From assembly GCA_017482055.1 (NCBI GenBank), contig JAFUOH010000013.1, positions 3,416-67,415 on the forward strand: a DNA stretch of 64,000 bases. The letters are read 5' to 3'. This DNA is from Clostridia bacterium. Its GTDB lineage: Bacteria; Bacillota; Clostridia; Oscillospirales; CAG-272. Shown here piece after piece: positions 2,190 through 39,204 of the stretch. A program made the position numbers and the translations under genes. Below the pieces are notes generated by a model. It did no database searches, was not told the origin of the DNA, and saw only the letters and a list, made by a program, of their open reading frames with translations. Numbering within the stretch: position 1 is the first letter of the stretch; every line of letters starts with the position of its first letter.

Positions 2190-2990
2190 TTACCTTTCTT
2201 TCGGTTTACTTCCCTTGCTCTTGCCGAGTTCGGGAGTCTTGGTTGTTTCCTTGGGTCTCTCGCTTCTCTTGCGATTGATCTCCTCTAACTTTTTTCTTAC
2301 GGACGGCTTACGGTCTGACTTGCCCTCGCTCTTATCATCAGATCTTTCGGGATTTTTGGTAGCCGTCGAGGATGGCTCGGACGGAAGGTTTCTTTCGGGT
2401 TCCGTTCCCTCCGGCACCCTCGTAGTTTCCGTCCGAGCCGCAGTAGGGTTTTCCATTTCGTTCTCCTCCTTTTGGATAGGCTTGCCAAGGATCTCATCGG
2501 CAAGCTTCTCGTCGGCACTCTTTTCGGGTTTGTCGTTTTCGGGAACGTCGGTCTTTCCTTCGTCCTTTTCGATCTCCTCTTTTTCACGAATGATCTCTGC
2601 GCGAAGGTCAGCCGTATTGACTCTTGCAAGATTGAATCGCTCGGTAATTCGTGCGATCTTGCTCTCGTCCTCTGCTCTGACCATAACGTCAAAGACACCG
2701 CCCGTTTTGTCTTTTTCCTTCAGCACGGTGTAGAGGATACCGTACTGCTTGGCGACCTCTTTGAATTTCGGCAGGTCGCTATCCCTAAAGGTGTAAACCT
2801 TCAAGGGCTTTCCGCTTCGGAGCATACTTTCAAGTCTCGCGGCTCCCTTTGTTTTCTTTTGCTCACGAGCAATCGAATACAAAAGAACAGCGGCGTTCTT
2901 CGCACCGCTACCCGAGAGCTTGACAAGAACCTCCGCGCCGTTCAGCATCATCCTCATGACCTGATCAGCAGCTTCTCCGGATGTGTTCAT
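2190..2990 (-). CDS. pcfB: PcfB family protein (DUF3801-like)
   Basis: The N-terminal 130 aa (QVMRMMLNGAEVLVKLSGSGAKNAAVLLYSIAREQKKTKGAARLESMLRSGKPLKVYTF...YGILYTVLKEKD) match the PcfB pattern seen next to relaxases in Firmicutes elements. The C-terminal half is low-complexity and charged. There is a 4-nt ATGA overlap with the relaxase stop. Confidence 0.7.
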   Translation of the reverse strand: MNTSGEAADQVMRMMLNGAEVLVKLSGSGAKNAAVLLYSIAREQKKTKGAARLESMLRSGKPLKVYTFRDSDLPKFKEVAKQYGILYTVLKEKDKTGGVFDVMVRAEDESKIARITERFNLARVNTADLRAEIIREKEEIEKDEGKTDVPENDKPEKSADEKLADEILGKPIQKEENEMENPTAARTETTRVPEGTEPERNLPSEPSSTATKNPERSDDKSEGKSDRKPSVRKKLEEINRKRSERPKETTKTPELGKSKGSKPKER

Positions 2991-4321
2991 CTCTTGTCCT
3001 CTCTTTCGTTAGTTTTTGTTTTCGCATCGTTGGTATCTCTCCTTTGAAGATTCTTGTCGGGAATGTGAATCGTGTTGACCACCGCCTCAACAACACCGCT
3101 TCTTGCCGCAATGTCCTCGCAGAGTTTCATCTGCTTTCGTAGATCTGCCATCTGCGAAGATAACTCTGAGATCTCGTCCTTTATCGGTTGCATCGTCTCG
3201 GTATCGTGCATACGGCGAAGCTTGTTGCGGAGCTTGGCTCTCTTATATGCGAGTTCCTTAAACTTGTTGGATAACCCCTCGGTAAACAAAGAAAGCTCCT
3301 CGGCAGTATTGATGTTATACTTACCAAGAAGCTTTGCTTCCTCCGAATACATACGCGCACGTTTCACATCTTCCTTGATAACCGCGTATGCTTCACGATT
3401 ATTCGGTCTTTCTTTTGGCAGAGCACCAAGAAGATAACAATAATGGATATACAACGCATACAGACCTTTCGGTTTTTCTCTCGGCACATACGCCATATAC
3501 GGAATGACACGACGATTTCTCGCGTTATCTATGATTCGCTCCTTCACATCCTCCAAGGTGTATCCCTCTCCGAGCTTATCCATACGGAAGAACTTTTTAC
3601 TCGCGTCGGGACGTATGCGAAGATACTGCCCTCTCCACTCAAGCGTGTATCCGAGTGCTTGAAAAAGGTTCTCGAACATTCTGAAACTCGTACTGTGCTT
3701 GATTGCAATATCCATATCCCGACGTATGATTCCTCGCACGGTCGGTCTACCTTCTTGCTCGGCTTTGAGCTCACCGATGTGTCGGGTCTTTCCCCTCTGT
3801 GGGTTCTTGATTACGGATAGTCCGTGCTCTTGACACAATCGGTCGGAAACCTCGCGCATCCTGCGGTAGTTATCTCCGTCAGCATGAAATCTTCGTCCAT
3901 CAAAACCCGTCGCACATATCGCGTAGTGGTTATGAACGTGTCGGGTATTGAGGTGGGTTGTGACAAGCACCGGAAAGTTTTCTCCCCACATTTCTTTTGC
4001 GAAGGCGATACCGATAGCGTGTGCGGTTTTCGGATCGACTTCATCTTCCGCAAAGCTCTGATAGGCGTGATAGGCAACGCGATCCGAGTTGGTGGGATAG
4101 GTTGAAAGATTTTTGTTCATCACACTCAAAACATTTTCGGGTGTGCAACCTATTCCCGTAACGTACAACCTCTGCTCTGTTTTACTCTCATCGGCATCAT
4201 ACCAAATAAGATTTTTGAGAGCTTCGCTTGTTTCGTTCTCGGTGGTCTTATCGAGATCACAGACATACTCAATCAGTTGTCGGAGTCGTTCCTTGACCGC
4301 CCATATCTTCGTTGTAGCCAA
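2987..4321 (-). CDS. MOB relaxase (MobA/VirD2-type relaxase/mobilisation nuclease domain)
   Basis: N-terminal MATTKIWAVKERL..., then a YHAYQSF (catalytic Tyr region) and the His-rich metal motif THLNTRHVHNHYAI. The start codon is TTG at 4321, with GAGGTG 9 nt upstream. It overlaps the MobC 3' end by 53 nt. Confidence 0.85.
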   Translation of the reverse strand: MATTKIWAVKERLRQLIEYVCDLDKTTENETSEALKNLIWYDADESKTEQRLYVTGIGCTPENVLSVMNKNLSTYPTNSDRVAYHAYQSFAEDEVDPKTAHAIGIAFAKEMWGENFPVLVTTHLNTRHVHNHYAICATGFDGRRFHADGDNYRRMREVSDRLCQEHGLSVIKNPQRGKTRHIGELKAEQEGRPTVRGIIRRDMDIAIKHSTSFRMFENLFQALGYTLEWRGQYLRIRPDASKKFFRMDKLGEGYTLEDVKERIIDNARNRRVIPYMAYVPREKPKGLYALYIHYCYLLGALPKERPNNREAYAVIKEDVKRARMYSEEAKLLGKYNINTAEELSLFTEGLSNKFKELAYKRAKLRNKLRRMHDTETMQPIKDEISELSSQMADLRKQMKLCEDIAARSGVVEAVVNTIHIPDKNLQRRDTNDAKTKTNEREDKR

Positions 4322-6850: not shown

Positions 6851-7015
6851 TCAAAAATATCCTTCGATCTTGCACTCTTTCACTTCTGTTTCGTGATACA
6901 AGATACGTTCTTCCGACACGGCTTCAGCGGCTTTTGCCTTTGCTTCTTCTTCGCAATCGGCTTCAACTTCGATATATCCGGTCTGTACGATTGTAACGGC
7001 TACTCCATATTTCAT
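6851..7015 (-). CDS. Small DpnD/PcfM-like protein, 54 aa (below the ORF-track cutoff)
   Basis: My translation is MKYGVAVTIVQTGYIEVEADCEEEAKAKAAEAVSEERILYHETEVKECKIEGYF. The ATG at 7015 is preceded by GAGGAGGAAGGGGCG. It has the same fold-like pattern as the 4778-4975 protein. Confidence 0.55.
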   Translation of the reverse strand: MKYGVAVTIVQTGYIEVEADCEEEAKAKAAEAVSEERILYHETEVKECKIEGYF

Positions 7016-7044: not shown

Positions 7045-7111
7045 ATAGCCGAGAGAATTAAGGTGCTAATCCTCTCGGCTATGTAAAATGGGCGGTAGAC
7101 AAATACCGCCC
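7045..7111 (-). terminator. Two consecutive GC-rich hairpins ending the resistance operon
   Basis: Hairpin 1 is GGGCGGTA-6nt-TACCGCCC (7090-7111). Hairpin 2 is ATAGCCGAGAG-16nt-CTCTCGGCTAT (7045-7082). On the minus strand hairpin 2 is followed by TTTTATTT. Confidence 0.6.
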
Positions 7112-7155
7112 TTGACTATTCAATTTTAATAAACTGTTCGATAAATTGGAATTTG

Positions 7156-8028
7156 TCAATACCTATTACCATAAAGATATTTATTTGAAATTCTCTTTTG
7201 TGTTTCCAAATATTTTGTAACGTTTTCATCATAATCAGGATAATTATAACCAAGTGAATCTGCCACTTTTTTAGATATTTTTTTGAACAAACATAGACAC
7301 AAATCAAACGATTTCCACATTTCTTCATACGAACTCATTGAATATGTATTTAGTAAGTTATCCCACAATTCTTTTGAAATATGCTTATCTAAAAATTTAT
7401 AGTTTTTACCCAAACTGAAATTAAATCCTTTTTCAGTACCGACATACCAACTAATCATCCTAAGAAGCTCATGACGTAATACTTCATTCATATGGTCTAT
7501 TGCAAATAGTATTTCACCACGAAGTAAGCCCTTGGATACATATGTTGCAACATTCCAAAATTCGTTACAACAGTCATCAAACTTTCTTTCTGTTGGACAC
7601 TTAATGTAATAATCTTCATCTGTGGGAACTATTTCTGTTTTAATCATATTATCTTTATCTAACATGATTTTTACAAGTTTATCGCGAGTAAGATACTCCT
7701 CAAGCATTGAAACAGGTAACAAAGTTAAATCAATCTTTACACCATCATCAAAAAGCATTATATAAGAAAATCCTTTTTCTTCTGGAGGAAATAATTCCAT
7801 ATCTTCAGGTTTTTGCATCATAATTCTGTTACCAAAAACACTAAGCCAGTCATCGCTTTTCAAAAATTCTCCCATATCTATAACAAAAAAAGTAATATCA
7901 TAATCTTGAAGATTGTCTTTTGGTATATTAACATTAGTGCGAGACCCCTCAAGAGTTACAATTCTAATTCTCTCATCTTGAAAAGCAAAATTCAAAACTA
8001 AATCGTATATTTCTTTTTCAGTCCTCAT
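7156..8028 (-). CDS. ant(6): Aminoglycoside 6-nucleotidyltransferase ANT(6) (streptomycin resistance, AadE family)
   Basis: MRTEKEIYDLVLNFAFQDERIRIVTLEGSRTNVNIPKD..QDYDITFFV...IMMQKPEDMELFPPEEKGFSYIMLFDD..KIDLTLLP...DDCCNEFWNV...ILFAIDH...RHELLRMISW is near-colinear with ANT(6)-Ia as I recall it. The start is taken as the ATG at 8028, with GAGGTG 6 nt upstream. The track start at 8037 is GTG. Confidence 0.9.
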   Translation of the reverse strand: MRTEKEIYDLVLNFAFQDERIRIVTLEGSRTNVNIPKDNLQDYDITFFVIDMGEFLKSDDWLSVFGNRIMMQKPEDMELFPPEEKGFSYIMLFDDGVKIDLTLLPVSMLEEYLTRDKLVKIMLDKDNMIKTEIVPTDEDYYIKCPTERKFDDCCNEFWNVATYVSKGLLRGEILFAIDHMNEVLRHELLRMISWYVGTEKGFNFSLGKNYKFLDKHISKELWDNLLNTYSMSSYEEMWKSFDLCLCLFKKISKKVADSLGYNYPDYDENVTKYLETQKRISNKYLYGNRY

Positions 8029-8081
8029 TTCATTCACCTCAATAAAATTATATCACAAAAAAAGATTGATTCTAACTGTTC

Positions 8082-8849
8082 TTATAATTTGATAACCGCA
8101 TCAAGGCAGAGCGTAAGTGCATATTCGTATGCATTACCGCCCCAGTTTCTTTCGTCGTATTTGTCAACATCTGCAAGACTGTCTGCGGTATAAAGTATCA
8201 TACCCCAGGTTGCCCCTCTGAAATCAGCACAGGCCGCCAGAGCAGAACATTCCATTTCTACAACTGCACAGCCTTCACTTTTGCGATAAGCCACCTTTTC
8301 TTTGGTTTCACGGAAAAATCCATCCGTTGACCAGGTTATAACCTCCTGATATTTCATACTATGCTCAAGAATGGTTTCTTCAATTGCTTTTCTTGCCTTC
8401 TCGCTGATTTCCACAAATCGAGAAGGGGGCGCATAGTGATAAGATGTTCCCTCATCACGCAGAGCCTTGTTTGGTACGAGGAATGTACTTTCGGGGAACT
8501 TTTCCAGAGCACCGCAACTACCTGCCGAGATTACCTCTCTTACACCATAACCAATCAGCCAATCAAGTATCTGTGTGGCTGCTGCCGCACCAACGGGTGC
8601 TTGACAAAGCACAATGTCCTCACCCTTGTATTTGGTGATGTAAATGGGATAATGCTTCGTTGCACTCTCAAAAGTGGATACCTGTTTGGTATCACTTTTA
8701 CTGGCATATTCATCTATGTAAGCACCAAGAAATGCGAACACACATTTCTTGGGTAAGTTCAAACCAAGATTTTCATGAGTGGGATTAAGAACTGCTGTCT
8801 GCTCTGTATCAAACTCCAAAATCGGTATTTCGTTTTTAATAATAGCCAT
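8082..8849 (-). CDS. Nucleoside phosphorylase superfamily protein (PNP/UDP-1 fold, uridine-phosphorylase-like)
   Basis: 255 aa. The sequences ...VLCQAPVGAAAATQILDWLIGYGVREVISAGSCGAL... and ...AVVEMECSALAACA.. are typical of PNP_UDP_1 enzymes. The substrate is unknown. Confidence 0.65.
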   Translation of the reverse strand: MAIIKNEIPILEFDTEQTAVLNPTHENLGLNLPKKCVFAFLGAYIDEYASKSDTKQVSTFESATKHYPIYITKYKGEDIVLCQAPVGAAAATQILDWLIGYGVREVISAGSCGALEKFPESTFLVPNKALRDEGTSYHYAPPSRFVEISEKARKAIEETILEHSMKYQEVITWSTDGFFRETKEKVAYRKSEGCAVVEMECSALAACADFRGATWGMILYTADSLADVDKYDERNWGGNAYEYALTLCLDAVIKL

Positions 8850-8861
8850 ACTATCTCTCCG

Positions 8862-8904
8862 TCAAATTCTTATTTTCCTAACTGTTCGACCTATTGGAAT
8901 TTGT
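8862..8904. repeat. 43-bp cassette-junction repeat, copy 1
   Basis: TCAAATTCTTATTTTCCTAACTGTTCGACCTATTGGAATTTGT, identical (43/43) to 9980-10022. It lies between the stop of the MBL gene and the start of the phosphorylase gene. On the coding strand it has 7-bp terminal inverted repeats, CAAATTC...GAATTTG. Confidence 0.9.
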
Positions 8905-9492
8905 TTATTTCAATATTTTTTGATTTGCGTGAGCGTAATAAATCGCGGTTGGAGAATAACTTTTAATGCGTTCCCAATCGTTTTGTAAACTCTCATTAAG
9001 CTCATAACCATCGAGATATTCCATGGGTTCTAAATCGCCAACAAAGCATTCGCCGCTATCCAAGACTAAAGATACGCTATCTTGACTGTGACTTGGGGTA
9101 CTAACGATCTCACCGTTTAACCCGAGGCTCTTGAGGAAAGCTCTGCTTTCTTCGGTACGGATAACTGTTGCATTGTTTATATCAATCGGTTTGTAGTGCA
9201 GCCTTTTATCTCTTTTAAATATCCCGTCTGAAAAATGGACAAAAGACACTTGCGTGTCGATCAAAAGCAACTTGACGTTTTGACTCATAACCTCGCTTAT
9301 CAAGCCAATGTGATCGGGATGATAATGTGTAGCTAATACATAGGTTATATCGGAGAACCTAATATTCTGTTCTTTTATGGCTTTGTAAAAAGAAGATATC
9401 GTGCCTGCATAGTCTGTATCGACAAGCAAGCCGCCGTCTTTTCCACTAATGAAAAAAGTGTTCGTGTTGCCATATTTCAGTTTCGTAACCAT
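8905..9492 (-). CDS. MBL-fold metallo-hydrolase (195 aa)
   Basis: Contains the HxHxDH motif (ATHYHPDHIG). The start is taken at the ATG at 9492, with GGAGG 6 nt upstream. The longer track ORF (to 9609) would overlap the upstream gene. Confidence 0.7.
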   Translation of the reverse strand: MVTKLKYGNTNTFFISGKDGGLLVDTDYAGTISSFYKAIKEQNIRFSDITYVLATHYHPDHIGLISEVMSQNVKLLLIDTQVSFVHFSDGIFKRDKRLHYKPIDINNATVIRTEESRAFLKSLGLNGEIVSTPSHSQDSVSLVLDSGECFVGDLEPMEYLDGYELNESLQNDWERIKSYSPTAIYYAHANQKILK

Positions 9493-9532
9493 AACAAACC
9501 TCCATTCGTCAAATTGGAATTTGGAGAACTGT

Positions 9533-9967
9533 TTACAATCTTTTCTTGAAGCAGATGATACGATTTGCTTCATCAAATCCCATTGCCATATGGAATTTGA
9601 AACTATCAATATTGTCTATCTCACAATCACTGGCAAACTCGCTGCATCCAATTTCTTTTGCCCATATTTCACAAGCTAAAAGGAGCTCTTTTGCATATCC
9701 GTTCTTTCGGTATTCCTCTTTTACGAAAATACCTTCCAAGTAACCCACAGGAGAACTTTCTGTGCCTTCGACATAGTCAGTTCTCAAACCGCATTGCGCA
9801 AATCCTACGGGCAAATCATTTATATACTTGATAAAAAATGCAGATTGCTTGTCATTAAGTGTTTCAGCAAACTCTGCTTCTAATTCATCAACAGTATGAC
9901 TATCCCACATTTGAACAGCCATTTCTGCCAAAACACGACTGTCCCCATTTATTGCTATTCTAACCAT
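9533..9967 (-). CDS. aac(6'): Aminoglycoside 6'-N-acetyltransferase, AAC(6')-I type (GNAT)
   Basis: LRTDYVEGTESSPVGYLEGIFVKEEYRKNGYAKELLLACEIWAKEIGCSEFASDCEIDNIDSFKFHMAMGFDEANRIICFKKRL aligns closely with the AAC(6')-Iy/Ic subfamily as I recall it (IRHDYVNGCDSSPVVFLEGIFV...GCREMASDT..EN..S...H.ALGFEE.ERV..YRK). Confidence 0.85.
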   Translation of the reverse strand: MVRIAINGDSRVLAEMAVQMWDSHTVDELEAEFAETLNDKQSAFFIKYINDLPVGFAQCGLRTDYVEGTESSPVGYLEGIFVKEEYRKNGYAKELLLACEIWAKEIGCSEFASDCEIDNIDSFKFHMAMGFDEANRIICFKKRL

Positions 9968-9979
9968 TGAAACACCTCA

Positions 9980-10022
9980 TCAAATTCTTATTTTCCTAAC
10001 TGTTCGACCTATTGGAATTTGT
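9980..10022. repeat. 43-bp cassette-junction repeat, copy 2
   Basis: Identical to 8862-8904. It lies between the stop of the Lnu-like gene and the start of aac(6'). Degenerate or partial copies occur at 7132-7156 (22/25 over the right arm), 9493-9532, 8038-8081 and 10520-10550. Confidence 0.9.
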
Positions 10023-10024
10023 CG

Positions 10025-10519
10025 TTATCTATACTCATTTGGAACTTCGATATGAAATGTCTCACACAATAACTTCACATCATGTACATCATTTTCATCA
10101 AACTCGTATCCGAGATGGAACATTACTTGACTATATGGTTCAATACAGGAAACCTCTATCTCCTCAATTTTTCCTTTACCTGAAAAAATTTCTAACGGAA
10201 AGCAATCCCCCTCATAAAGAATTTCACCTTTGCCTGTATATTCAAAACAATGCAAATCAATAATTCTGTTTTTCGCATCTTCCCATACAGTATGATTCAA
10301 TGTTGTATATTCCATCTTAATTTCATAAAATCCATTAGCTTGTATTATCTCTATAAAATTCTGATAATCTTTCTTTTCTACAAAAATATCAATATCGTTA
10401 TGGCTTCTTGACTGATGTCCAAGAAGTGCATCTACACCCCAGCCGCCATCAAGAAAGACTTTAATCTCCGCATCTATTGCGAATTGAAGAATCTGTCTTA
10501 CATCTGTTATATTGACCAT
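10025..10519 (-). CDS. lnu: Lnu(A)/ANT(2'')-family nucleotidyltransferase, most like lincosamide nucleotidyltransferase Lnu(A)
   Basis: 164 aa. FLDGGWGVDALLGHQSRSHNDIDIFV matches the Lnu(A)/AadB nucleotidyltransferase motif (W.DGGWGVD.L.G.Q.R.H.DIDI). The C-terminal CIEPYSQVMFHLGYEFDENDVHDVKLL parallels Lnu(A). Confidence 0.75.
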   Translation of the reverse strand: MVNITDVRQILQFAIDAEIKVFLDGGWGVDALLGHQSRSHNDIDIFVEKKDYQNFIEIIQANGFYEIKMEYTTLNHTVWEDAKNRIIDLHCFEYTGKGEILYEGDCFPLEIFSGKGKIEEIEVSCIEPYSQVMFHLGYEFDENDVHDVKLLCETFHIEVPNEYR

Positions 10520-10557
10520 CTTATCATCCTCACAAATTCTTATTTATCGGTGAGTTT

Positions 10558-10586
10558 ATTATATCATAAAAATGTGAAATTTTCAA
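10558..10586 (-). promoter_or_regulatory. SigA-type promoter of the resistance operon
   Basis: The minus strand reads TTGAAA-17nt-TATAAT, about 35 nt upstream of the lnu-like ATG. Confidence 0.6.
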
Positions 10587-10629
10587 TCAGTTCTGAATTA
10601 TATCTTAACTTTCAATTTCTCTTATGTAA

Positions 10630-10653
10630 GGCAACAGTACAATGTCTGTTGCC
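10630..10653 (-). terminator. Hairpin downstream of the giant ORF (possible terminator)
   Basis: GGCAACAG-8nt-CTGTTGCC, 34 nt after the stop at 10687. The U-tract is weak. Confidence 0.4.
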
Positions 10654-10686
10654 CGCACGTCTTATTTTCACCGTGCAATCTGACCG

Positions 10687-13600
10687 TTATCTGTCGGTAC
10701 GATCAGATCTCGTTCTGCTGTTCTCGTCGCGCTCATCCTCGCTCTGCTCCTCTGCGCCGTCAACGATCTCGTTCTCTCGCTTATCCATATTCAGCTCAGC
10801 ATTGAGTTCTGCAAGTCGCTTGCATTTTTCCTCAAGCTCTGCTTCTCTTGCAAAGGGTTTAGCGATCTCCGCCTTCGCGTTCTCGACCTGCTTATGCAGT
10901 TCTTCAAGCTGAAGCTCACAGCCCTGCTTTCGCTTTTCAAAGGCTTCGATAGCATTGTCAAGACGGATAATGATACCGTTAGCATCTTGTCCGAGTGGAA
11001 CTTTGTGAAAGAGTTTTCCTCGCAAATTGATAAAGAACTCTCTACCAAAGGTATCAAATCCAATCTCCATTTTGAAACCACGATATTCACCAAGAGGTCT
11101 TTCGTCGGGCGAGTTGATGCGCTCACATACAGCGAGGATCGCCTTACCCGCTTCTGCCTTTTCGGTATAGGTCGTGCCCATAACTTCCATCGGGGAGAAT
11201 CCGTTTTCATTCGGGAACGTGGAGTTCTTTGCGGTTTCAATATCCTCGATCAAGCACTTAATTCTCTCCTCTTGGTCGGCAATATTCCTCGGGAACTTCT
11301 TGATAAGAGCGTCCTCAAGGCTGTACCTCTGACTCAAGTGATCTGCCTTTTGAAGCTTCAGTTTTGCAACGTCGGCATCAAGCTGCATCTTCTCCATAAT
11401 CTTCGGATTGCCGCTTGCAAGAGCCTTGATCTCCGCATAGGATAGGGCGGTCTCGTCCACGTCCTCTGCACTTCTTACCGGAGATTTACTCGTCATAATC
11501 TGCGAAATAAACTTCTGTTTGCTCTCAAGAAGCTGATAGGAATAGGCGTCGAAGGTTCCCTCCGTAACGTAACGGTAAAGGTCAACCTCGGGGTTGGAGT
11601 TTCCTTGTCGGACAATTCGACCTGCTCTCTGTTCAAGGTCAGCGGGTCTCCACGGAACGTCAAGGTCGTGAAGTGCAATGAGTCTCTGCTGCACGTTTGT
11701 GCCGGCTCCCATCTTGAAGGTTGAACCCATAAGCACTCTGACTTGTCCACGGCGAACCTTGGCAAAAAGTTCTTTCTTCTTTGTGTCGGTATCTGCCGCG
11801 TGAATGAAAGCGATCTCCTCGGGCGGTATTCCCCGCTCAATGAGTTTATTTCTGATGTCATCATAAACATTGAAGCTGCCGTCATCCTTCGGTGTGGAAA
11901 GGTCGCAGAACACAAGCTGTGCCGCCTTTTTATCCGCATACTTTTCCCAAATCTCGTAGATGTTCTGAACGCAAGTGTTGACCTTACTTCCATCATAATC
12001 TCCAAGACCAATATCGACAAGTCGCTGATCAAGTGCAGCCTTTCGTCCGTCGTTTGTGATGAGAAGCATATTGTCCTCTGTTGAGCTTACCATACGGTTG
12101 TGAACCCTTTCGGCTCTCTCCGCAAAGGACTCAACGAGTTCTTTCTGCTCCTCACTTGCTTCGACCTTGACGATGTGGTAGTGCGCTTCGGGTACGGGAA
12201 GTTTGAGCATATCTGCGGTCTGAATGTCCGCCGTCTGCTTAAACATTGCCATCAGCTCGGGGATGTTAAAGAACTTTGCAAAGCGTGTCTTTGCTCGGTA
12301 TCCGCTACCATCGGGTGCAAGCTCTATTGCCGTTACCGTCTCGCCAAAGGTCGATGCCCAAGCATCAAAATTGAGAAGTCCGCGCAACTGAAGCTCATCG
12401 TACTGAAGGTATTTCTGCATCGTGTAAAGCTCTACCATCGTATTGGAGATAGGCGTACCCGTTGCAAACACACAACCCTTTCCTCCTGTCAGTTCGTCAA
12501 GATAACGACACTTCATATAGAGGTCGGAGGATTTCTGTGCTTCGGTCTGTGAGATACCTGCTACGTTTCGCATCTTGGTATATGCCGCGAGGTTCTTATA
12601 GAAGTGTGCCTCGTCCACAAACAGACGGTCAACGCCAAGCTCCTCAAAGGTCACGACGTCATCCTTTCGGCTTTGGTCATTGAGCTTTGCAAGTTTTGTC
12701 TCGATCTGCTTTCTCGCTTTGGCGAGCTGCTTGACGGTTACTCTGTCTCCTCTTGATGCTTGGATCTCCTCAATACTTTGCAGTATTTGGTCACGCTCAT
12801 TGTTAAGCGTTTCGATCTGTCTCTCAAGGGACATCGGGATCTTCTCAAACTGTGAGTGACCGATGATAACAGCATCGTAGTCACCCGTAGCAATTCTTGC
12901 ACAGAACTTCTTACGGTTTTTGGTTTCAAAGTCTTTCTTGGTAGCGACAAGGATATTTGCGCTCGGATAGAGTTGCAGATATTCACTTGCCCACTGTTCA
13001 ATAAGATGGTTGGGAACAACAAACATACTCTTGTTACAGAGTCCGAGTCTCTTGCTCTCCTGCGCCGCCGCAACCATCGTAAAGGTCTTACCTGCACCGA
13101 CAACGTGTGCAAGGAGTGAGTTACCGCCGTACATAATTCTTGCCACGGCATCGCTCTGATGCTTTCTCAAGGTAATCTCGGGGTTCATACCAAAGAACTT
13201 GATGTGGCTACCGTCAAACTCACGGGGGCGAATACTGTTGAAACGCTCGTTATAGAGCTTACAAAGTCTCTCTCGCCTTGCCGGGTCTTTCCATATCCAC
13301 TCGTCAAACGCTCTCTTGATCTGCTCCTGCTTACCTTGTGCAATTGCAGTTTCCTTTTTGTTGAGGACTTGCTTTTTGTTTCCGTTCTCGTCAATCGGGT
13401 AATCAAAGATACGCACGTCCTTGAGGTTCAAGCTCTCCTCGATGATCTCATAACCGTTGATTCGATGAGTACCGTAAGCGTTTACCGCCTTGACATTTCC
13501 TCTGTCTCTTGTCTTATTGGTTATGACCCATTGTGAGGTCTGCGGAATGAATTTGACCTCGATAAGCCTTCTCATATAGAAAGGCGTTCCGAGCAATTCG

Positions 13601-16600
13601 TGGACGAAATCTTGAATATCCTCTTGCGGTATCCAAGTGGAACCGAGTCGTACACCGATCTCGGCAGCACTCAGATCTTCGGGCTGTACCTTCTCAAGTG
13701 CTTCTACGTTATCCGCAAATGCGGGGTCTGCTTCGGCTTTCCATTTGGCTTCCTTGAGCTTTTCTCGCACGTTACCCGAAAGGTATTCGTCAGCCATAAG
13801 GTAAGGTCTTGCGCCGATCTTTTCGCCGTGCTCGGGGTTGCGGAAGATAACGCCCTTGAGGTCGGAGAACAATTCCTCCTCGCTCTTGCCCGTCAGTTCG
13901 CTCATATACTCCATATCCACCATAGCTCGCTCACCCATAGAGAGTGCAAGAGCTTCGCTTGCCGTGTCCACTCGGTCAACCGTGACCTGCGGCTTGATGG
14001 TTCGCTTGGTGAACATATCCGCCTTTGCTTTGAGTTCCTTGTTTTCATCAAGTATCTCAAGAGAACAAAGGAGGAAATAGGAGTTATCGTCGCTGAACAC
14101 CATCGCGTTTCCTCGGCTATTGATAAGTCCATACTTTGCAGTAAACTCATCATACTGCTTATTGAGTTTCGCTTGGAGTTCTTTGATCTCGCTCTCGGGG
14201 TAATCCTCAAGCTGCGCTTCGATCAGAGCCTTCACCGTGTCTCGGATACCGATCATACCCTTGATACGGTTCTCGCCCGTTACCGAAGTCTCGACGGGGT
14301 TCATAACGCTGTTCTGTCGGTAGTACACCTTTCCGTCTACAATCGTAAAGGAAAAGTTCTTCACGGTCGGGTCTGCGGGAATGGATTTGTCCTCTGTTCC
14401 CTCTGTCAGTTCGTCAAGCTCAACCTCGCTGATCTCTGCGTGGATATTGCTGATTGCTTCTGTCAAAAGCTCTCCGAGATCTTCGTCCTCATAAGGCTTG
14501 CAGGTGGGTTCTGGTCCATAGGGACCGGAACGCATCACTACCTCACCGAGCACCATATCGGGGTGGTCGATAAAGTATTGGTTCATCTTGATTCCGTTTT
14601 CATCGGTTCCAAGGTGTACCCAATCCTCGTCTCTCTCGATAATTCGATCTCGCTTTTGGAGGAAGATAATATCCGACACGACCTTGTTCGCGCCTGCTCC
14701 GTCAAAGGTATTGTTGGGCAGACGGATAGCACCGAGGAAGTCGGCTCTCTGCGAGATATACTTTCTGACAGACGAGTTCTCTTTGTCAAGAGTACCCGAG
14801 CTTGTGATGAAAGCGATCACACCACCGGGGCGAACCTTATCCAAGGTTTTCGCAAAGAAATAGTCGTGAATGAGGAAGTTGTACTTGTCGTACTTCTTGT
14901 CAAGGAGCTTGAAATCATTGAACGGCACGTTACCGATTGCAACATCAAAGAAGCTATCGGGGAAATGAGTTTTCTCATATCCGTCGATGGTGATACCATT
15001 CTTCTGATAGAGCTGCCTTGCAATTCTACCCGAAAGGCTATCAAGCTCAACACCGTACATCTTGGCATCCATACTCTCTGGGATAAGACCCATAAAGTTA
15101 CCGACACCGCATGAAGGCTCAAGCACGTTTCCTCTCTTAAATCCCATATTCTCAAGAGCGCTATACATCGCCTTGATAACAACGGGCGGCGTATAAAAAG
15201 CCGTCAAAGTCGATTCTTTGGCGGCTTCATATTCTTCGGGAGAGAGTGTGGTGTAAAGCTCGGTAAACTCCGAGTGCCAATTATCTTTGGTCTCATCAAA
15301 GGCATCGGCAAGACCGCCCCAACCCGAATACTGTGCAAGTATCTCTTGCTCCTCGGGTGTTGCCAAACGGTTATCGAACTCAAGCTCGTGCAAGAGGTTG
15401 ATCGCCGCGATGTTCTTTCGGAACTTCTCTTTTGCTCCACCCATTCCGATCTCGTTATCGGTAATGCGGTAGTTGTGCTTTTCGCTATCGGGTATCTCAG
15501 GATGCGTGTTATACACGGGCAAAGTCTTTCTCGGCTTTTCCTTCTCGACAAGCTGCGGAATACCCATTCCGTATTTCTCATTGTACTGTTCAATAAGATC
15601 ATCCGAAACCGAAATCAGCGCATCAAACACAAGATTGTTCAGCTCGTATTCGATCAGATCGTGAAGTGAATCATATTTGCTTACCTCTACGATGTCATCG
15701 GCAAGGTATTTCTCAATCTTGAAATCCACAAGGTTTACGACAACTTGGATGGGAATTTCATCATCGGTAATAGTCGTATAACCGATACCGATGTTTGTCA
15801 GATCGGAAAAATCCACCGATTCGGAATTGTACTCCTCAGCACAATAATCCTCAATGAGCTTCTTTGCGACCTCAAGCTCGGTCGGTTCCCTACTCGGTAC
15901 TCGCTCGATGTGTGGCTCTGCTTTTTCGGCTCTGTCGGCTGCTCTTTCCTCGGGGGGTCTGTCATCGTTCAGTATCGGATATCTTGAGAACAGAAGGCTG
16001 ATATTGCCCTTATCCAAATACTTTTCAAACTCATAGCGATCCATACTGACCGCTTCTTGCCCGGGTTCACTCGGCATCGTATACCAAATGTCGTGCTCGT
16101 CTATGCGCTCGATCTCAAGGTGAACTCCGTCTTTTCCCTCAAAGGAGGCAAATAGCGTGTCACCCTCGTGGTACTCTTTACCGTTTTCGGTAGTAAAGAT
16201 ATTGGCTTCGGCAAAACCGTTAACCCTCTGAAAACCATTGAGATCTTTCAAAGCTTCGCTATGCTCGGCATAACGGAAGATCTGACCGTTACTTCCGATG
16301 AACTGTCCCGTGACATTATCAAAAATGCCTTGGATGCCACCTTCAAACGGCAGACGCCGGAGTGAGAAACGATGGGTAACCTCTCCCTTAAGACGAGGTT
16401 TCTCCACCTGCTCAAGTTCTTCCGCAATGGAGATAAGCTCCTCTCTTGCTTCTGTACCAAAGCCGTGGTAGTAATACTCATCCAATAAGAAACGCTTTGC
16501 AACATCATGGAAGTCCTCATCACCGACATCAACAAGTGTCTGCCTTGCTTCGGAACCGAGCTTATCAAAGAATACGCTGTAATCCTCATTCTCCTTGAGC

Positions 16601-19600
16601 GCGATGATCTGCTCAAAGGTGACTACGTTCTCAACAAACTGTCCACCTGCTGTGCTATCGGGATTAAAATAGAGCCAAGTTACCTCGCCCTTTTCTTCGT
16701 CCACATAGAAACGGTCATCGCTGAAGCGATACTCATACAAGCGCAGTATTTCTTTTCCATCAGCGGGTAAGATCTCCGCGATCTCCTCGTCGGTGTAGCT
16801 CTGATTGGCTTTCGGCTTTTCCTTGATTGCAAACTCCTTATCTTCCTCTGCGATAACCACCTTAAAGCCTTTATCTTGGAGCTTTTGCAGATACTTATCC
16901 AAGGTGTGATAAGGAAATCCGCACATAGGAACTCTTGTAGGTCTGTCGGGTACGCTTCTGCCCGTAAGTGTAAGCTCAAGGGCGTCGGATGCTTCTACTG
17001 CATCTTGGTCAAGAAGCTCATAGAAGTCTCCTACTCGGATAAGCGCCATTCGGTCGGGATAGTGAGTTTTCGTAATCGTAAATCTTTCCCAAACATCGGT
17101 CTTTGCGGGAATGGAAAGTTTTTCAACGTCGCTCTCCAAAAGGATTTCTTCTGCTTCTTCATCTTCATTCATAAGAGAAGCGAAAATCTCCTCGGTTCTC
17201 TGCTCGTGCTCGATCTGCGGCAAGATCTTTTCAATCTCACTCTTACAACGGTCAAAGCTATCAAGGTACTGATTTGCATTGCGGTGACGTCTCATATCAA
17301 TAAGTCTGTCATTCTCGATGGCAGACTCAAGACCCGTAACATACCCCAAGATATTCGGGATAGAGGTCTTTTTGAGTATCTTTTCGGGTATGCGCTTTGC
17401 CTGCTCTTTGCACCATTGGTAGGTCTCATTCGATTGATAGATCGCAAGTGCTACCTTTGCAGCTTCACGGATAAGATCTGCATTTGCCACAAAGTTTTGC
17501 GGCACTTCGGGCGGTATCTCGCGGTCGAAAATATCGGGGAGATTATCTTCTCCGACAAGCTCAAGAATCTGTCGGCGGTAAGATATGATATGGTTACGAA
17601 CCAAATTCATATTGACGCCATCTTCCCAAAAGGGATCGCCCGAACCTTCGGCTTTAATCTGATTCCACCTTGCGTAAGACTCCTCCATCTTTGCCACAAG
17701 TGCATCAACCGACGGCTCGTTCTTTTTACCCTTGCGCGTCTGCTTAGGCGGTGTTCCCGGCTTCGGCTTTTCCTCCTTAAACTCTACCTTTGGAGCAGGT
17801 CGGGGTTCTTTCAGAAGTCCGTCATTCAGCGGGTTTTCACGGATACGCTTAAGGAAGGTATCAAGCTCCATTTCAAGAGGAATGAGTGTACCGTCAAAGA
17901 GCTCCACCTTATCTCCTGCAAGTGACAAAATCTCATATTCGTCCTTGCCGATGTGTACGGTCACACCAAGGTGCAGATCGTACTCTGTGTCGGGTAATTC
18001 TTCGATGATAGGCTCGTTTACCTCTGCGACGGGTTCTTGCACTACTTCCTTCTTCTCGGGCGCAAAGGGCGTTTTCTTGCGGTAGGGAGAGCCGGGAAAC
18101 AGATTATATCTGCCCTCGGAATAATCCTTTACGGTATCAAGGGTTTGCTTATCTCGGTTATAACTTTCCGTGCCCGGGAACTGTTTGTCCAAGGCTTCTT
18201 GCATCATATCTATGATCTCAAGCAAGCGGTCTTTATTCTCGATCTGTTTTGCAATATCGTTGACAGCAATCCAAAAATCTGTCGTTTTATAAACGTCATA
18301 AGGATAACGCACGTCAAGCATCTTGTCCGAATAGAAGTTTTTGATCTTCCAACCAATATCCTTCCTTTCGTAGCTATCCATTTCGGCTTTGTCCTCATCG
18401 GACAGATATACGCCTTTACGGATAAGCTCGTCGATACGCTTTGCCACCTGCGACCATTTAAGGTGCATACCCGTGTTACCGCTACGAAGTCCACCGTAGA
18501 TCACCCAACCTTTAGGACTATGGTCATCCCCGATTCTACCGCCCGAGGAACCTCCCGTACCGAAACTGTCCGAAAGATGCTTGGCTCTTTTGGTGTTATC
18601 TTTCTCTCTCAAGAAGAAAGAATAATGCTTGAGTTTGGTATCCGTTCCTTTTTCAAGTAGCGCCGCATCGAACTTGTCTTGTGTGACAAACTGCTTGGGA
18701 GGGAGAATATACGGGTCTGCTTCGGGAAAATCGATAGGCTCTCTTAGGTGCATTTCCAAGTAAGACATATACTGCTCTGCGTTTTCCAAATAGCGAAAAC
18801 GCGGAGGATATTTTTCAAGCAAAGGCATTCTTGCTCTCAATTCTCTTACTTGCTGTGCTCCCTTTTCGGGATCGTTCAAATTCTTCGCAAATAACTCTCT
18901 CGCCTCGTAATACATCAAGTTCGGCTTAAGCCAAAACTTTTGCTCGTCGGGGATCTCTCCAAACACATCGCCAAGCAAGGTGCGAACCTTATCCGAGATA
19001 AGATCACACCATACCTCTTTTGCCTTTTCTGCTTCTTGCTGTGAGAGATATTGACCCAAGTTCATCAGTTCTCTGACTCGCTTGTCAACAATATCCCAAG
19101 GTATCAGCACGGAACTGTATTCCGATACTCTATCTCCGGTAGATATGCGGATACCCGCATCATCCCATTTAGCGGAATAGTTCTTATCGTTAACCGTAAT
19201 ACCAACACTATCGCTCTGATATTCGCGGCGCAGATAAGGAATCGTTTCTTCGCTGCCTTTGGCTCTGCGATAATACTCATAAATTCGCATATTGCTATTT
19301 CGGGTACAACCGCCAAGCCTTAACAGCTCGTCGATAACCTCCTGCGAGATACGCATCTGACTTGTGCTATCTGCTTTCTCTTGGGGAGTGCTTTCTGCTG
19401 CCGTCTGTACCTCGGGCATATCCATATCAAAGAGAGACATTTGGTGATCTTCCTTGACCACGGGCTTTTCAAGGTAATTCTTATCGGTGATAAGTGCCTC
19501 AACAAGTCTTGTGACAAATGCCCAATCCATACGGTTCTCCGCCGTTCTCGACGTGAAGCTACCCGTATAGAGAAGCAGGCTTTCATCATCGGCTCTGTAA

Positions 19601-38738: not shown

Positions 38739-38813
<75 letters not shown>

Positions 38814-38848
38814 AAAGCTCATCCTTTTGGGATGAGTAGAGAAAAAAA

Positions 38849-38924
38849 TGGAGCGGATTACGGGGCTCGAACCCGCCACCTCGACCTTGGCAAGGTCGCG
38901 CTCTACCAAATGAGCTAAATCCGC
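38849..38924 (-). tRNA. tRNA-Gly (GCC)
   Basis: The reverse complement is GCGGATTTAGCTCATTTGGTAGAGCGCGACCTTGCCAAGGTCGAGGTGGCGGGTTCGAGCCCCGTAATCCGCTCCA. The anticodon loop is TTGCCAA, and CCA is encoded. Confidence 0.9.
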
Positions 38925-38950
38925 TTATTGCTTCGGCTATTGCCGAAGCT

Positions 38951-39026
38951 TGGTGCCTCCGGTCGGAATCGAACCAACGACACGGGGATTTTCAGTCCCC
39001 TGCTCTACCAACTGAGCTACAGAGGC
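38951..39026 (-). tRNA. tRNA-Phe (GAA)
   Basis: The reverse complement is GCCTCTGTAGCTCAGTTGGTAGAGCAGGGGACTGAAAATCCCCGTGTCGTTGGTTCGATTCCGACCGGAGGCACCA. The anticodon loop is CTGAAAA. Confidence 0.92.
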
Positions 39027-39029
39027 ATA

Positions 39030-39106
39030 TGGCGACCGAGATGGGGTTCGAACCCACGACCTCTAGCGTGACAGGCTAGCGTTCTAACCAGCTGAACTAC
39101 CCGGCC
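39030..39106 (-). tRNA. tRNA-Asp (GTC)
   Basis: The reverse complement is GGCCGGGTAGTTCAGCTGGTTAGAACGCTAGCCTGTCACGCTAGAGGTCGTGGGTTCGAACCCCATCTCGGTCGCCA. The anticodon loop is CTGTCAC. Confidence 0.9.
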
Positions 39107-39128
39107 ATAAGCGGTCTTTACAGACCGC

Positions 39129-39204
39129 TGGTGGAAGCTACAGGGCTCGAACCTGTGACCCTCTGCTTGTAAGGCAGATGCTCTCCCAGCTGAGCTAAGC
39201 TTCC
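39129..39204 (-). tRNA. tRNA-Val (TAC)
   Basis: The reverse complement is GGAAGCTTAGCTCAGCTGGGAGAGCATCTGCCTTACAAGCAGAGGGTCACAGGTTCGAGCCCTGTAGCTTCCACCA. The anticodon loop is CTTACAA. Confidence 0.92.

Follow-up and report, generated by a model that had tools for sequence, protein, structure and literature searches.

A four-cassette antibiotic resistance array in a promoter-terminator slot of a Clostridia conjugative element, and a putative site of cassette exchange

The window analysed here is a stretch of 64,000 nucleotides (nt) from contig JAFUOH010000013.1 of a Clostridia bacterium of the CAG-272 lineage. Within an integrative and conjugative element (ICE) it carries a block of five co-oriented minus-strand open reading frames (ORFs; window positions 10519-7156), encoding Lnu(C), AAC(6')-I, a metallo-beta-lactamase (MBL)-fold protein, a PNP/UDP-family phosphorylase and ANT(6). 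The block is not one unit; it is an array of four compact cassettes, lnu(C), aac(6'), MBL and PNP+ant(6), which are bounded by a short, nearly palindromic site and which probably move independently of each other.

Genes and cassette boundaries of the block

The genes, in the order of transcription, are the following.

10025-10519, minus strand: lnu(C) cassette gene, lincosamide nucleotidyltransferase of 164 amino acids (aa), called from an NCBIfam profile and collection matches
9533-9967, minus strand: aac(6')-I cassette gene, 144 aa, AAC_6p_group_E equivalog
8905-9492, minus strand: MBL-fold hydrolase cassette gene, 195 aa, called from Pfam and NCBIfam profiles, with the start given by gene callers
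8082-8849, minus strand: PNP/UDP-family phosphorylase gene, heading the two-gene PNP+ant(6) cassette, with a PNP_UDP_1 Pfam match
7156-8028, minus strand: ant(6) aminoglycoside 6-adenylyltransferase gene, 290 aa, called from the NF033084 profile

The Lnu(C) protein was matched over residues 1-164 of 164 by the NCBIfam profile NF000141 (348.7 bits, cutoff 300), and it is identical to Lnu(C) of pHN61 in 149 of 164 aa. AAC(6') scored 199.3 bits with the AAC_6p_group_E equivalog (cutoff 140) and ANT(6) 449.9 bits with the NF033084 equivalog (cutoff 420), so that three of the five genes exceed curated resistance cutoffs. The array is predicted to confer resistance to lincosamides, 6'-amino aminoglycosides and streptomycin. 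Public sequences contain exact matches to all five proteins; the resistance genes themselves are already known. AAC(6'), for example, is 100% equal to AHN92738.1, whose clone name, DCM001Kan02, fits a kanamycin-selected manure clone series (PMC3993861). The GC content is 0.331 in lnu(C), 0.379 in aac(6'), 0.393 in the MBL gene, 0.435 in the PNP gene and 0.294 in ant(6), compared with 0.476 in the adjacent giant ORF of 3,440 aa and about 0.48 in the flanking backbone. An earlier reading made from the letters alone (the sequence-only reading) had described this AT-rich block as a five-gene resistance operon, and in its composition and, essentially, its gene calls it was correct; only the first gene, placed there merely in the Lnu(A) family, is Lnu(C).

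Cassettes start 13-17 nt ahead of the start codon, directly after ..AATTTG, and end 0-9 nt past the stop codon, at CAAATTCC. The first three cassettes have no promoter of their own; ant(6) is preceded by its own extended -10 element. The junctions and related features are listed below; "outer" designates the slot-side and "inner" the cassette-side arm of a site.

10533-10552, minus strand: left junction, outer-inner, CACCGATAAA-TAAGAA-TTTG, followed by the lnu(C) cassette; in the left arm (10561-10532) of a 30-nt inverted repeat
9981-10022, minus strand: 42-nt junction ACAAATTCCAATAGGTCGAAC-A-GTTAGGAAAATAAGAATTTG after lnu(C), composed of an inner-outer site, AACAGTT and an outer-inner site
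9510-9523, minus strand: inner-inner minimal junction CAAATTCCAATTTG between aac(6') and MBL, a 14-nt palindrome
8863-8904, minus strand: second copy of the 42-nt junction, after the MBL gene (repeat D1)
8071-8081, minus strand: GAACAGTTAGA, putative remnant of a 3' site behind PNP, from comparison with the ends of PNP-only cassettes
8047-8055, minus strand: extended -10 element TGATATAAT, promoter-like, for ant(6), kept in every PNP+ant(6) copy examined
7127-7155, minus strand: right junction, inner-outer, CAAA-TTCCAA-TTTATCGAAC-AGTTTATTA, in the right arm of the 30-nt inverted repeat

The 30-nt inverted repeat (I1; 10561-10532 and 7156-7127) brackets the whole array. It was considered as a pair of transposon ends and rejected, because a target duplication is absent and the outer arms follow the backbone instead of the cargo. 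The 42-nt sequence ACAAATTCCAATAGGTCGAACAGTTAGGAAAATAAGAATTTG stands after both lnu(C) and the MBL gene with an identical core, and the 73-nt stretches spanning the two copies (repeat D1) are 81% identical. The extended -10 element of ant(6) resembles the -10 region of the promoter upstream of the array (repeat D18). No convincing junction sites were found elsewhere in the window, outside the block.

When the junctions are aligned, a site of about 30 bp emerges that is nearly palindromic and consists of an arm, a 6-nt spacer and an arm, (AACAGTT)-MGAYAAA-N6-TTTRTCGAAC. The consensus common to the left and the reverse-complemented right junctions is (AACWGTT)CGACAAA-TTKGAA-TTTG, GTTCGACAAATTKGAATTTG. 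Its parts are:

Outer (slot-side) arm: about 10 conserved nt, MGAYAAA with AACAGTT before it
Inner (cassette-side) arm: about 6 conserved nt, CAAA/TTTG
Full right-hand site: AACAGTT-AGAYAAA-TTCCAA-TTTRTCGAAC

Four classes of site occur: outer-inner (left), inner-outer (right), inner-inner (the minimal cassette-cassette joints at window 9523-9510 and in loci L032, L141 and L146, where they link other cassette pairs) and outer-outer. The last is represented by a site without a cassette in L126 (64-93; AGATAAA-CTTGAA-TTTGTCGAAC), an empty slot between two cassettes, and L128 (2941-2970) holds a second candidate. On the reverse strand of L126 (47-125) three sites are arranged in series: the right junction of a cassette, the cargo-free outer-outer site (AACAGTTAGATAAACTTGAATTTGTCGAAC) and the next left junction.

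Comparison of the spacers locates the point of exchange. Spacer positions 1-4 always accompany the left partner, and with the same lnu(C) cassette spacer position 4 is G after the slot arm and C after another cassette. These observations show that every crossover lies inside AATTTG, to the right of the dyad centre.

The site is strongly enriched. The 11-mer CAAATTCCAAT was found in 35 distinct contexts in 1.18 Mb, where about 0.6 were expected; it lies on the gene strand in 33 of the 35 and, as judged by eye, mostly just past a stop codon. Regular expressions for the site gave 144 and 355 matches, compared with about 25 and about 120 in shuffled sequences, and in a metagenome scan the full right-hand site was also present behind further unrelated genes. 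Viral contigs gave 8 matches, mostly chance ones within coding regions, and PLSDB plasmids gave none; with the whole block as query, plasmids matched lnu(C) only. A comparison with Rfam returned nothing, and as single strands the 42-nt junctions folded no better than shuffled sequences (z -0.3 to -0.8). A perfect palindrome, AACAGTTCGACAAACTTAAGTTTGTCGAAC, was seen in two GC-rich, probably non-gut contigs (L122, 1394-1423; L124, 1762-1791) with no obvious cassette.

The expression slot and its relatives

The region between the giant ORF and the module of the 54-aa, DUF3848 and primase genes is a cargo expression slot. It consists, in this order, of an upstream hairpin, a sigma-70 promoter, the left junction site, the right junction site and a terminator hairpin; the upstream hairpin probably insulates the slot from the giant ORF. 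In addition to the junctions its elements are:

10630-10654, minus strand: upstream hairpin GGGCAACAG-N8-CTGTTGCC, then TTACATAAG, read from the sequence; upstream edge of the slot
10558-10586, minus strand: slot promoter TTGAAA-17-TATAAT with TG extension, matching the consensus at 11/12 positions
7090-7111, minus strand: slot terminator hairpin GGGCGGTA-N6-TACCGCCC, then a T-run; in all occupied relatives, missing in empty ones
7045-7082, minus strand: backbone hairpin of 17 pairs, then a T-run, about 25 nt upstream of the 54-aa gene; also in the empty relatives L012 and L015, outside the insert

Relatives of the element were defined as contigs encoding the identical 54-aa protein (L012-L021). 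In two of them (L012 and L015), which are empty, the giant ORF is separated from the 54-aa gene by only 136 nt with a single hairpin; this hairpin differs from the upstream hairpin, which is present in all occupied relatives. The cargo of the occupied relatives varies: an HTH protein in L013, SUKH/SMI1 proteins in L014, L016 and L017, a GNAT protein in L019, and the array GNAT153+aac(6')+MBL+PNP+ant(6) in L021. In L018 the slot holds the same five genes as in the window, with 2 mismatches in 3,642 nt, and this 3.6-kb block is found in several metagenome samples. Irrespective of the cargo, the occupied relatives have a common frame, in which the upstream hairpin, the promoter and ..AAACTCACCGATAAATAAGAATTTG precede the cargo and (C)AAATTCCAATTTATCGAACAGTTTATTA.. 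and the hairpin GGGCGGTA..TACCGCCC follow it. The promoter is unchanged in relatives holding SUKH or GNAT cargo. In unrelated backbones the -10 box of the slot and the leader downstream of it are conserved, whereas the -35 box and the spacer have diverged; slot sequences diverge along with the backbones, but the cassettes inside them are identical across backbones.

These comparisons bear directly on what the sequence-only reading had proposed for the locus. The promoter and the hairpins lie where it had placed them, and the empty relatives confirm that the insert is foreign to the backbone. The promoter and the terminators had been regarded as belonging to the resistance genes; since the promoter, the 5' site and the hairpin 7111-7090 are common to the non-resistance cargo of the SUKH, HTH and GNAT relatives, they are part of the slot and not of the resistance genes. 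It had further been supposed that the primase module came to lie behind terminators through the insertion. However, the empty relatives have the identical hairpin 7082-7045 and the identical gap of about 25 nt up to the ATG at 7015; the puzzle of how the primase is transcribed is therefore older than the insert and is a property of the backbone. This hairpin, conserved in empty and occupied relatives alike, precedes the 54-aa gene with which the DUF3848/primase/relaxase module begins. It may serve the transfer region as a leaky terminator, as an attenuator or as a promoter-like element of single-stranded DNA.

At the corresponding place in the empty relatives (about 5895-5925 in L012/L015), the hairpin loop TTCGATTTATAAATTGGATT of L012 is, barring a 4-nt insert, the reverse complement of the right junction (TTCGATAAATTGGA). 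The loop could be a degenerate relic of an inverted site, or could be due to chance.

Cassettes in other contexts and the host element

Exact protein matches were counted in collection blocks as a measure of cassette abundance, and gave 51,806 for PNP, 1,245 for lnu(C), 407 for aac(6') and 309 for MBL. The cassettes recur alone, reordered, in unrelated ICEs, in integrative and mobilisable elements (IMEs), in an IS1595-type element and in chromosomes of many gut Clostridia. The exact PNP protein always has the identical ANT(6) behind it, and the 100%-identical PNP+ant(6) pair was found in at least 20 different flanks and species. Its neighbours include ParA/ParB, a tyrosine integrase, Tn4451-like IMEs, an IS1595-like gene and erm(42)-like and lnu(AN2)-like genes, and its hosts are Lachnospiraceae, Oscillospiraceae, Selenomonadaceae and others. 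In these contexts homology extends from exactly AATTTG|ACGGAGAG to TGACAAATT. The same cassette behaviour was observed with lnu(C) in 10 further contexts. Isolate genomes with the same junctions are among the loci (L002, L003, L011, L035, L036, L041 and L054); examples of array-bearing isolates are Blautia aquisgranensis CLA-JM-H16, Anaerostipes faecalis AGMB03513 and Copranaerobaculum intestinale DONG20-135.

Exchange of single cassettes is seen in several combinations. In L021 lnu(C) is replaced by GNAT153 and the junction downstream, the 42-nt junction, is unchanged even though it comes after another first cassette. In L027 PNP+ant(6) is replaced by MerR/TipAS, GNAT and methyltransferase genes, and aac(6') occurs without the MBL gene in L148, L151-L153 and L157. 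The order is variable as well: GNAT142 lies on one side of lnu(C) in L138 and on the other in L142, and an identical 210-aa hexapeptide acetyltransferase is encoded upstream of the identical lnu(C) in L141 (2341-2973) and downstream of it in L146 (3528-4160). By eye this acetyltransferase looks like streptogramin (Vat) acetyltransferases, and its junction to lnu(C) is of the minimal CAAATTCCAATTTG type.

The two-gene cassette looks, from sequence, like two fused cassettes. PNP-only cassettes (L056-L060) finish in AACAGTT-TGATAAA-TTCCAA-TTTAT, and because they end likewise, GAACAGTTAGA appears to be the old 3' site of PNP, the remnant of a formerly separate PNP cassette. PNP copies of 93-96% identity are single-gene cassettes; among the loci L056-L111 there are also PNP homologues of 80-90% identity whose surroundings look chromosomal and include neither ant(6) nor the site. 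This nucleoside phosphorylase-like gene ranks among the cassettes with the widest spread.

In four loci (L139, L144, L145 and L146, about 2900-3700) lnu(C) and a full slot with hairpin, promoter and sites lie amid ordinary-looking chromosomal genes, for example downstream of rplM-rpsI and near RNase Y and recA genes. Past the right junction, about 110 nt are conserved between L139 and L144. Slots may therefore exist outside recognisable mobile elements.

As for the MBL-fold gene, gene callers place its start at the ATG at 9492, and a 234-aa ORF beginning with TTG is too long. A true metallo-beta-lactamase was rejected, since the protein falls under the class B core and subclass cutoffs: the best NCBIfam match was the bla_class_B_core domain with 41.7 bits (cutoff 100). 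The top match in PDB was a glyoxalase II-like protein (E 4e-6); comparison of the MBL and PNP proteins with PDB and PADLOC gave remote matches only and no assignment of function. Precomputed annotation lists a weak match of the MBL-fold protein to Anti-Pycsar Apyc1 (PF23023); a Pfam scan of the over-extended 234-aa ORF gave Lactamase_B and ODP only, and no Apyc1. An anti-defence rather than an antibiotic-resistance role is conceivable.

The surroundings of the block are those of an ICE. On its 3' side lie the 54-aa gene, DUF3848 and a Toprim/DUF3991 primase, which in the relatives are followed by a NikA-like gene, a relaxase (PF03432), a weakly ArdC-like gene and a T4SS-DNA_transf coupling protein. 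On its 5' side lie the giant MutS_I/SNF2-type ORF, a surface protein with List_Bact repeats, a CpaF/VirB11-type ATPase, RcpC, a prepilin peptidase and ParB. The element is thus recognised by its relaxase and coupling protein in the relatives, by mating-pore genes in the window and by a border of tRNA genes:

38739-39204: five tRNA genes (Cys, Gly, Phe, Asp, Val), border between element and chromosome

Past this cluster are chromosomal genes (Hsp33, LplA, 2-oxoacid dehydrogenase, Lgt, ComEC and a PFL-like enzyme). The integrase of the element lies outside the window, and none of the element's ORFs annotated in the window belongs to a transposase, integrase or recombinase family. In the giant ORF (10687-21009, 3,440 aa) MutS_I, SNF2/ResIII helicase and faint Eco57I-like methylase domains were noticed; two small hairpins lie between its stop codon and the slot promoter.

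Mode of exchange and comparison with known systems

The loci display a fixed-point, orientation-preserving exchange of compact cassettes within old, diverged promoter/terminator slots. On the basis of these sequence comparisons we consider it probable, with a likelihood of roughly 0.6, that the cassettes are independent mobile units assembled and exchanged at the conserved site, and that the slot was filled cassette by cassette through site-specific recombination. In such a conservative reaction a single crossover would take place at the 3' edge of the 6-nt spacer. Recombination between a slot site with two outer arms and a cassette site with two inner arms would create the left outer-inner and the right inner-outer junctions, and entry of a cassette at the junction of a resident one would create the minimal CAAATTCCAATTTG joint. 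The junction of an excised circular cassette would read ..TGACAAATTCC-AATTTGACGG.., i.e. ..CAAATTCC-AATTTG.., and the emptied slot would read outer arm-spacer-outer arm. The array would be transcribed from the slot promoter, ending at the hairpin 7111-7090. Because no recombinase is consistently near the sites, the enzyme would have to act in trans and would not be encoded beside the cassettes. By analogy with integron attI x attC and XerC-only reactions as they are understood, the arm-6-arm layout and a single crossover away from the centre suggest a tyrosine recombinase exchanging one strand pair. A serine recombinase with a central dinucleotide was rejected, since spacer positions 1-4 travel with the left partner and the crossover is off-centre.

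Several points weigh against this reading. The genes next to the sites vary (ParA/ParB, a tyrosine integrase, TnpX-like serine recombinases, an IS1595-like gene), with no recombinase consistently adjacent, and in the window there is none among the annotated ORFs within 25 kb. Neither circular cassettes nor excision products were directly observed. The poor folding of the 42-nt junctions as single strands argues against an attC-like folded substrate, the XerD-arm consensus TTATGTTAAAT is missing from the site, and conservation in the cassette-side arms is weak, covering only some 6 nt. Among outer-outer sites a single clear one was found (L126), and when metagenomes were scanned for the commonest slot type (ParA) in its empty form there were 0 matches. 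Finally, the comparative material is largely metagenome assembly, despite several isolate genomes.

Four other explanations were weighed. The sequence-only reading had assumed that a resistance operon of five genes, complete with promoter and terminators, was inserted en bloc by a one-off event. It is true that in several samples the same backbone carries the identical 3.6-kb block; within this ICE lineage the array is therefore now inherited as a block, and it is probably passed between ICE relatives in the same form. However, the cassettes also recur separately, single ones are swapped, missing or reordered, their GC content ranges from 0.29 to 0.44, their abundances are more than 100-fold apart, and the promoter and terminator are common to non-resistance cargo in the relatives. 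As a complete account the en-bloc model is already contradicted, and we regard it as very improbable. Still harder to believe is a classical integron (IntI/attC) or an insertion sequence (IS) event involving ISSag10/IS1595 or a composite transposon. The promoter followed by compact co-oriented cassettes is integron-like, and elsewhere lnu(C) rides in ISSag10, but there is no intI among the annotated ORFs, no R''/R' core consensus, no folded attC and no Rfam match; there is also no transposase and no target-site duplication around the 30-nt repeat, and the ISSag10 inverted repeats GGCTCTGTCACAACAAATGGTTGAT are not present here and are unrelated to the junction site. It had been noted earlier that no element ends are visible; this was right as regards an IS or integrase nearby, but it had overlooked the palindromic site at every cassette boundary and the inverted repeat around the array.

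The two remaining alternatives concern the way in which the junctions are formed. Short-homology or illegitimate recombination would require no dedicated enzyme: RecA-independent or annealing-protein exchange between shared leader/trailer repeats of 14-45 nt, for example on incoming conjugative single strands, could produce arrays. It is favoured by the lack of a recombinase linked to the sites, by the junction repeats, which are identical within arrays and thus offer homology, and by the contexts, all of them conjugative or mobilisable elements with a single-stranded stage. But the outer arms vary between contexts while the cassettes are 100% identical, which confines crossovers to at most 7 nt of identity; the dyad symmetry, the arm-6-arm layout and the AACAGTT flank are kept across unrelated backbones, although homology needs none of them; and the exchange is strictly orientation-preserving even though the flanks are mutual inverted repeats. 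We consider this explanation unlikely. Even less likely is mobilisation of single strands by an HUH-type enzyme, an IS200/IS605-like transposase or a relaxase, which would cut 3' of ..AATTTG at the foot of a small palindrome, in the target and at the right end of the cassette, and give single-stranded circles. AATTT(G) does lie directly 5' of the crossover at both junctions, the right end is a small hairpin-capable palindrome, and a single polar crossover, strict orientation and conjugative or mobilisable hosts would all fit. Against these stand the absence of an HUH transposase near the sites, the variation of relaxase families (PF03432 here, MobA_MobL in L005 and L007) and the structure of the DNA: no hairpin is present at the left end of the cassettes, such small hairpins as exist are weak, and folding of the 42-nt junctions is not significant. 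An HUH-type enzyme is therefore a weaker alternative to the tyrosine recombinase.

The known systems closest to the arrangement are integron cassettes and the dif modules of Acinetobacter. It resembles integrons in its fixed promoter (10586-10558), its compact co-oriented cassettes, mostly promoterless with the exception of ant(6), and the imperfect palindrome at each boundary. As in integrons, cassettes occur singly, reordered and on different platforms, their cargo is rich in resistance genes but broader, and there is a single off-centre crossover, as G|TT in attC. The differences are equally clear: no integrase gene lies beside the platform here, nor consistently in other contexts; the sites measure 14-42 nt instead of 57-141; RYYYAAC/GTTRRRY cores at the site ends and significant single-strand folding are missing; and the platforms are located inside ICEs, IMEs and an IS1595-type element of Clostridia. 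We know of no reports of integrons in Clostridia. Identity with an integron was rejected, as intI adjacency, attC cores and attC folding were all lacking.

The dif modules of Acinetobacter, which have pdif sites and depend on XerC/XerD (PMC13141974, PMC6449649, PMC11705084), are similar in having arm-6 nt-arm sites with two differing half-sites in alternating orientation along the array. Single modules are swapped between related replicons, 'empty modules' occur and the recombinase is not beside the modules (PMC13141974). The outer arm AGTTCGACAAA agrees at 7/11 positions with the pdif XerC arm ATTTCGTATAA. In contrast, no XerD-type arm is found here, the inner arm having only its few conserved nt, and the 28-bp dif structure (XerC arm of 11 nt, 6-nt spacer, XerD arm of 11 nt) is thus lacking. 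The spacers flanking a cassette differ here, whereas pdif recombination needs near-identical ones; the platforms are ICEs/IMEs of strict anaerobes instead of Rep_3 plasmids, and the modules are single genes aligned with a promoter.

MTnSag1/ISSag10 (IS1595 family) carries lnu(C) with 93% nucleotide identity. Homology is confined to window 10544-10017, that is to lnu(C) itself, and ends at the cassette boundaries, 5' at AATTAGAATTTG|TGGAG and 3' at CTGCAAATAACAGTTTG. ISSag10/MTnSag1 was rejected as the vehicle because only lnu(C) is common, the transposase and the 25-bp terminal inverted repeats being missing from the block. Judged from sequence, the lnu(C) cassette seems to have entered ISSag10 as it did other recipients. 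The cargo hotspots of Firmicutes ICEs (Tn916/Tn5252-type) also have a defined intergenic position with different accessory genes in each relative, but here the promoter, the terminator and the architecture of the recombination site are conserved, and the site type recurs in unrelated backbones.

A wider interpretation of cassette-by-cassette exchange is that gut Clostridia have a previously undescribed cassette system, similar to integrons or dif modules, with an unlinked recombinase, with slots on ICEs, IMEs, IS1595-type elements and chromosomes, and with cassettes that are each essentially a ribosome-binding site and an ORF. We put this forward tentatively, its chances being somewhat less than even. 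The resistance cargo seen comprises lnu(C), lnu(AN2)-like, aac(6'), ant(6), erm(42)-like and vat-like genes, and the other cargo SUKH immunity proteins, regulators and further enzymes. In the non-subscription literature no published description of the site or the system was found, also not by site sequence; a prior description is possible.

The cassette-and-slot architecture, which is widespread in gut Clostridia, is the interesting part of the locus. To our knowledge, cassette capture has been described mainly for Gram-negative integrons and Acinetobacter dif modules, and the reading proposed here, if true, would extend it to Bacillota. In gut metagenomes of humans and animals, identical copies of ant(6), lnu(C) and aac(6') are very common, and often no IS or integrase lies beside them. 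For the present locus, cassette exchange would account for the arrival of the block, a question raised by the sequence-only reading. A conserved cassette site together with ready expression slots would explain how such resistance genes hop between unrelated mobile elements and species, and would provide a route by which identical resistance genes enter many gut anaerobes without any IS. The site would also serve as a sequence signature for new cassettes, including new resistance genes, and the search for the recombinase would become a defined problem.

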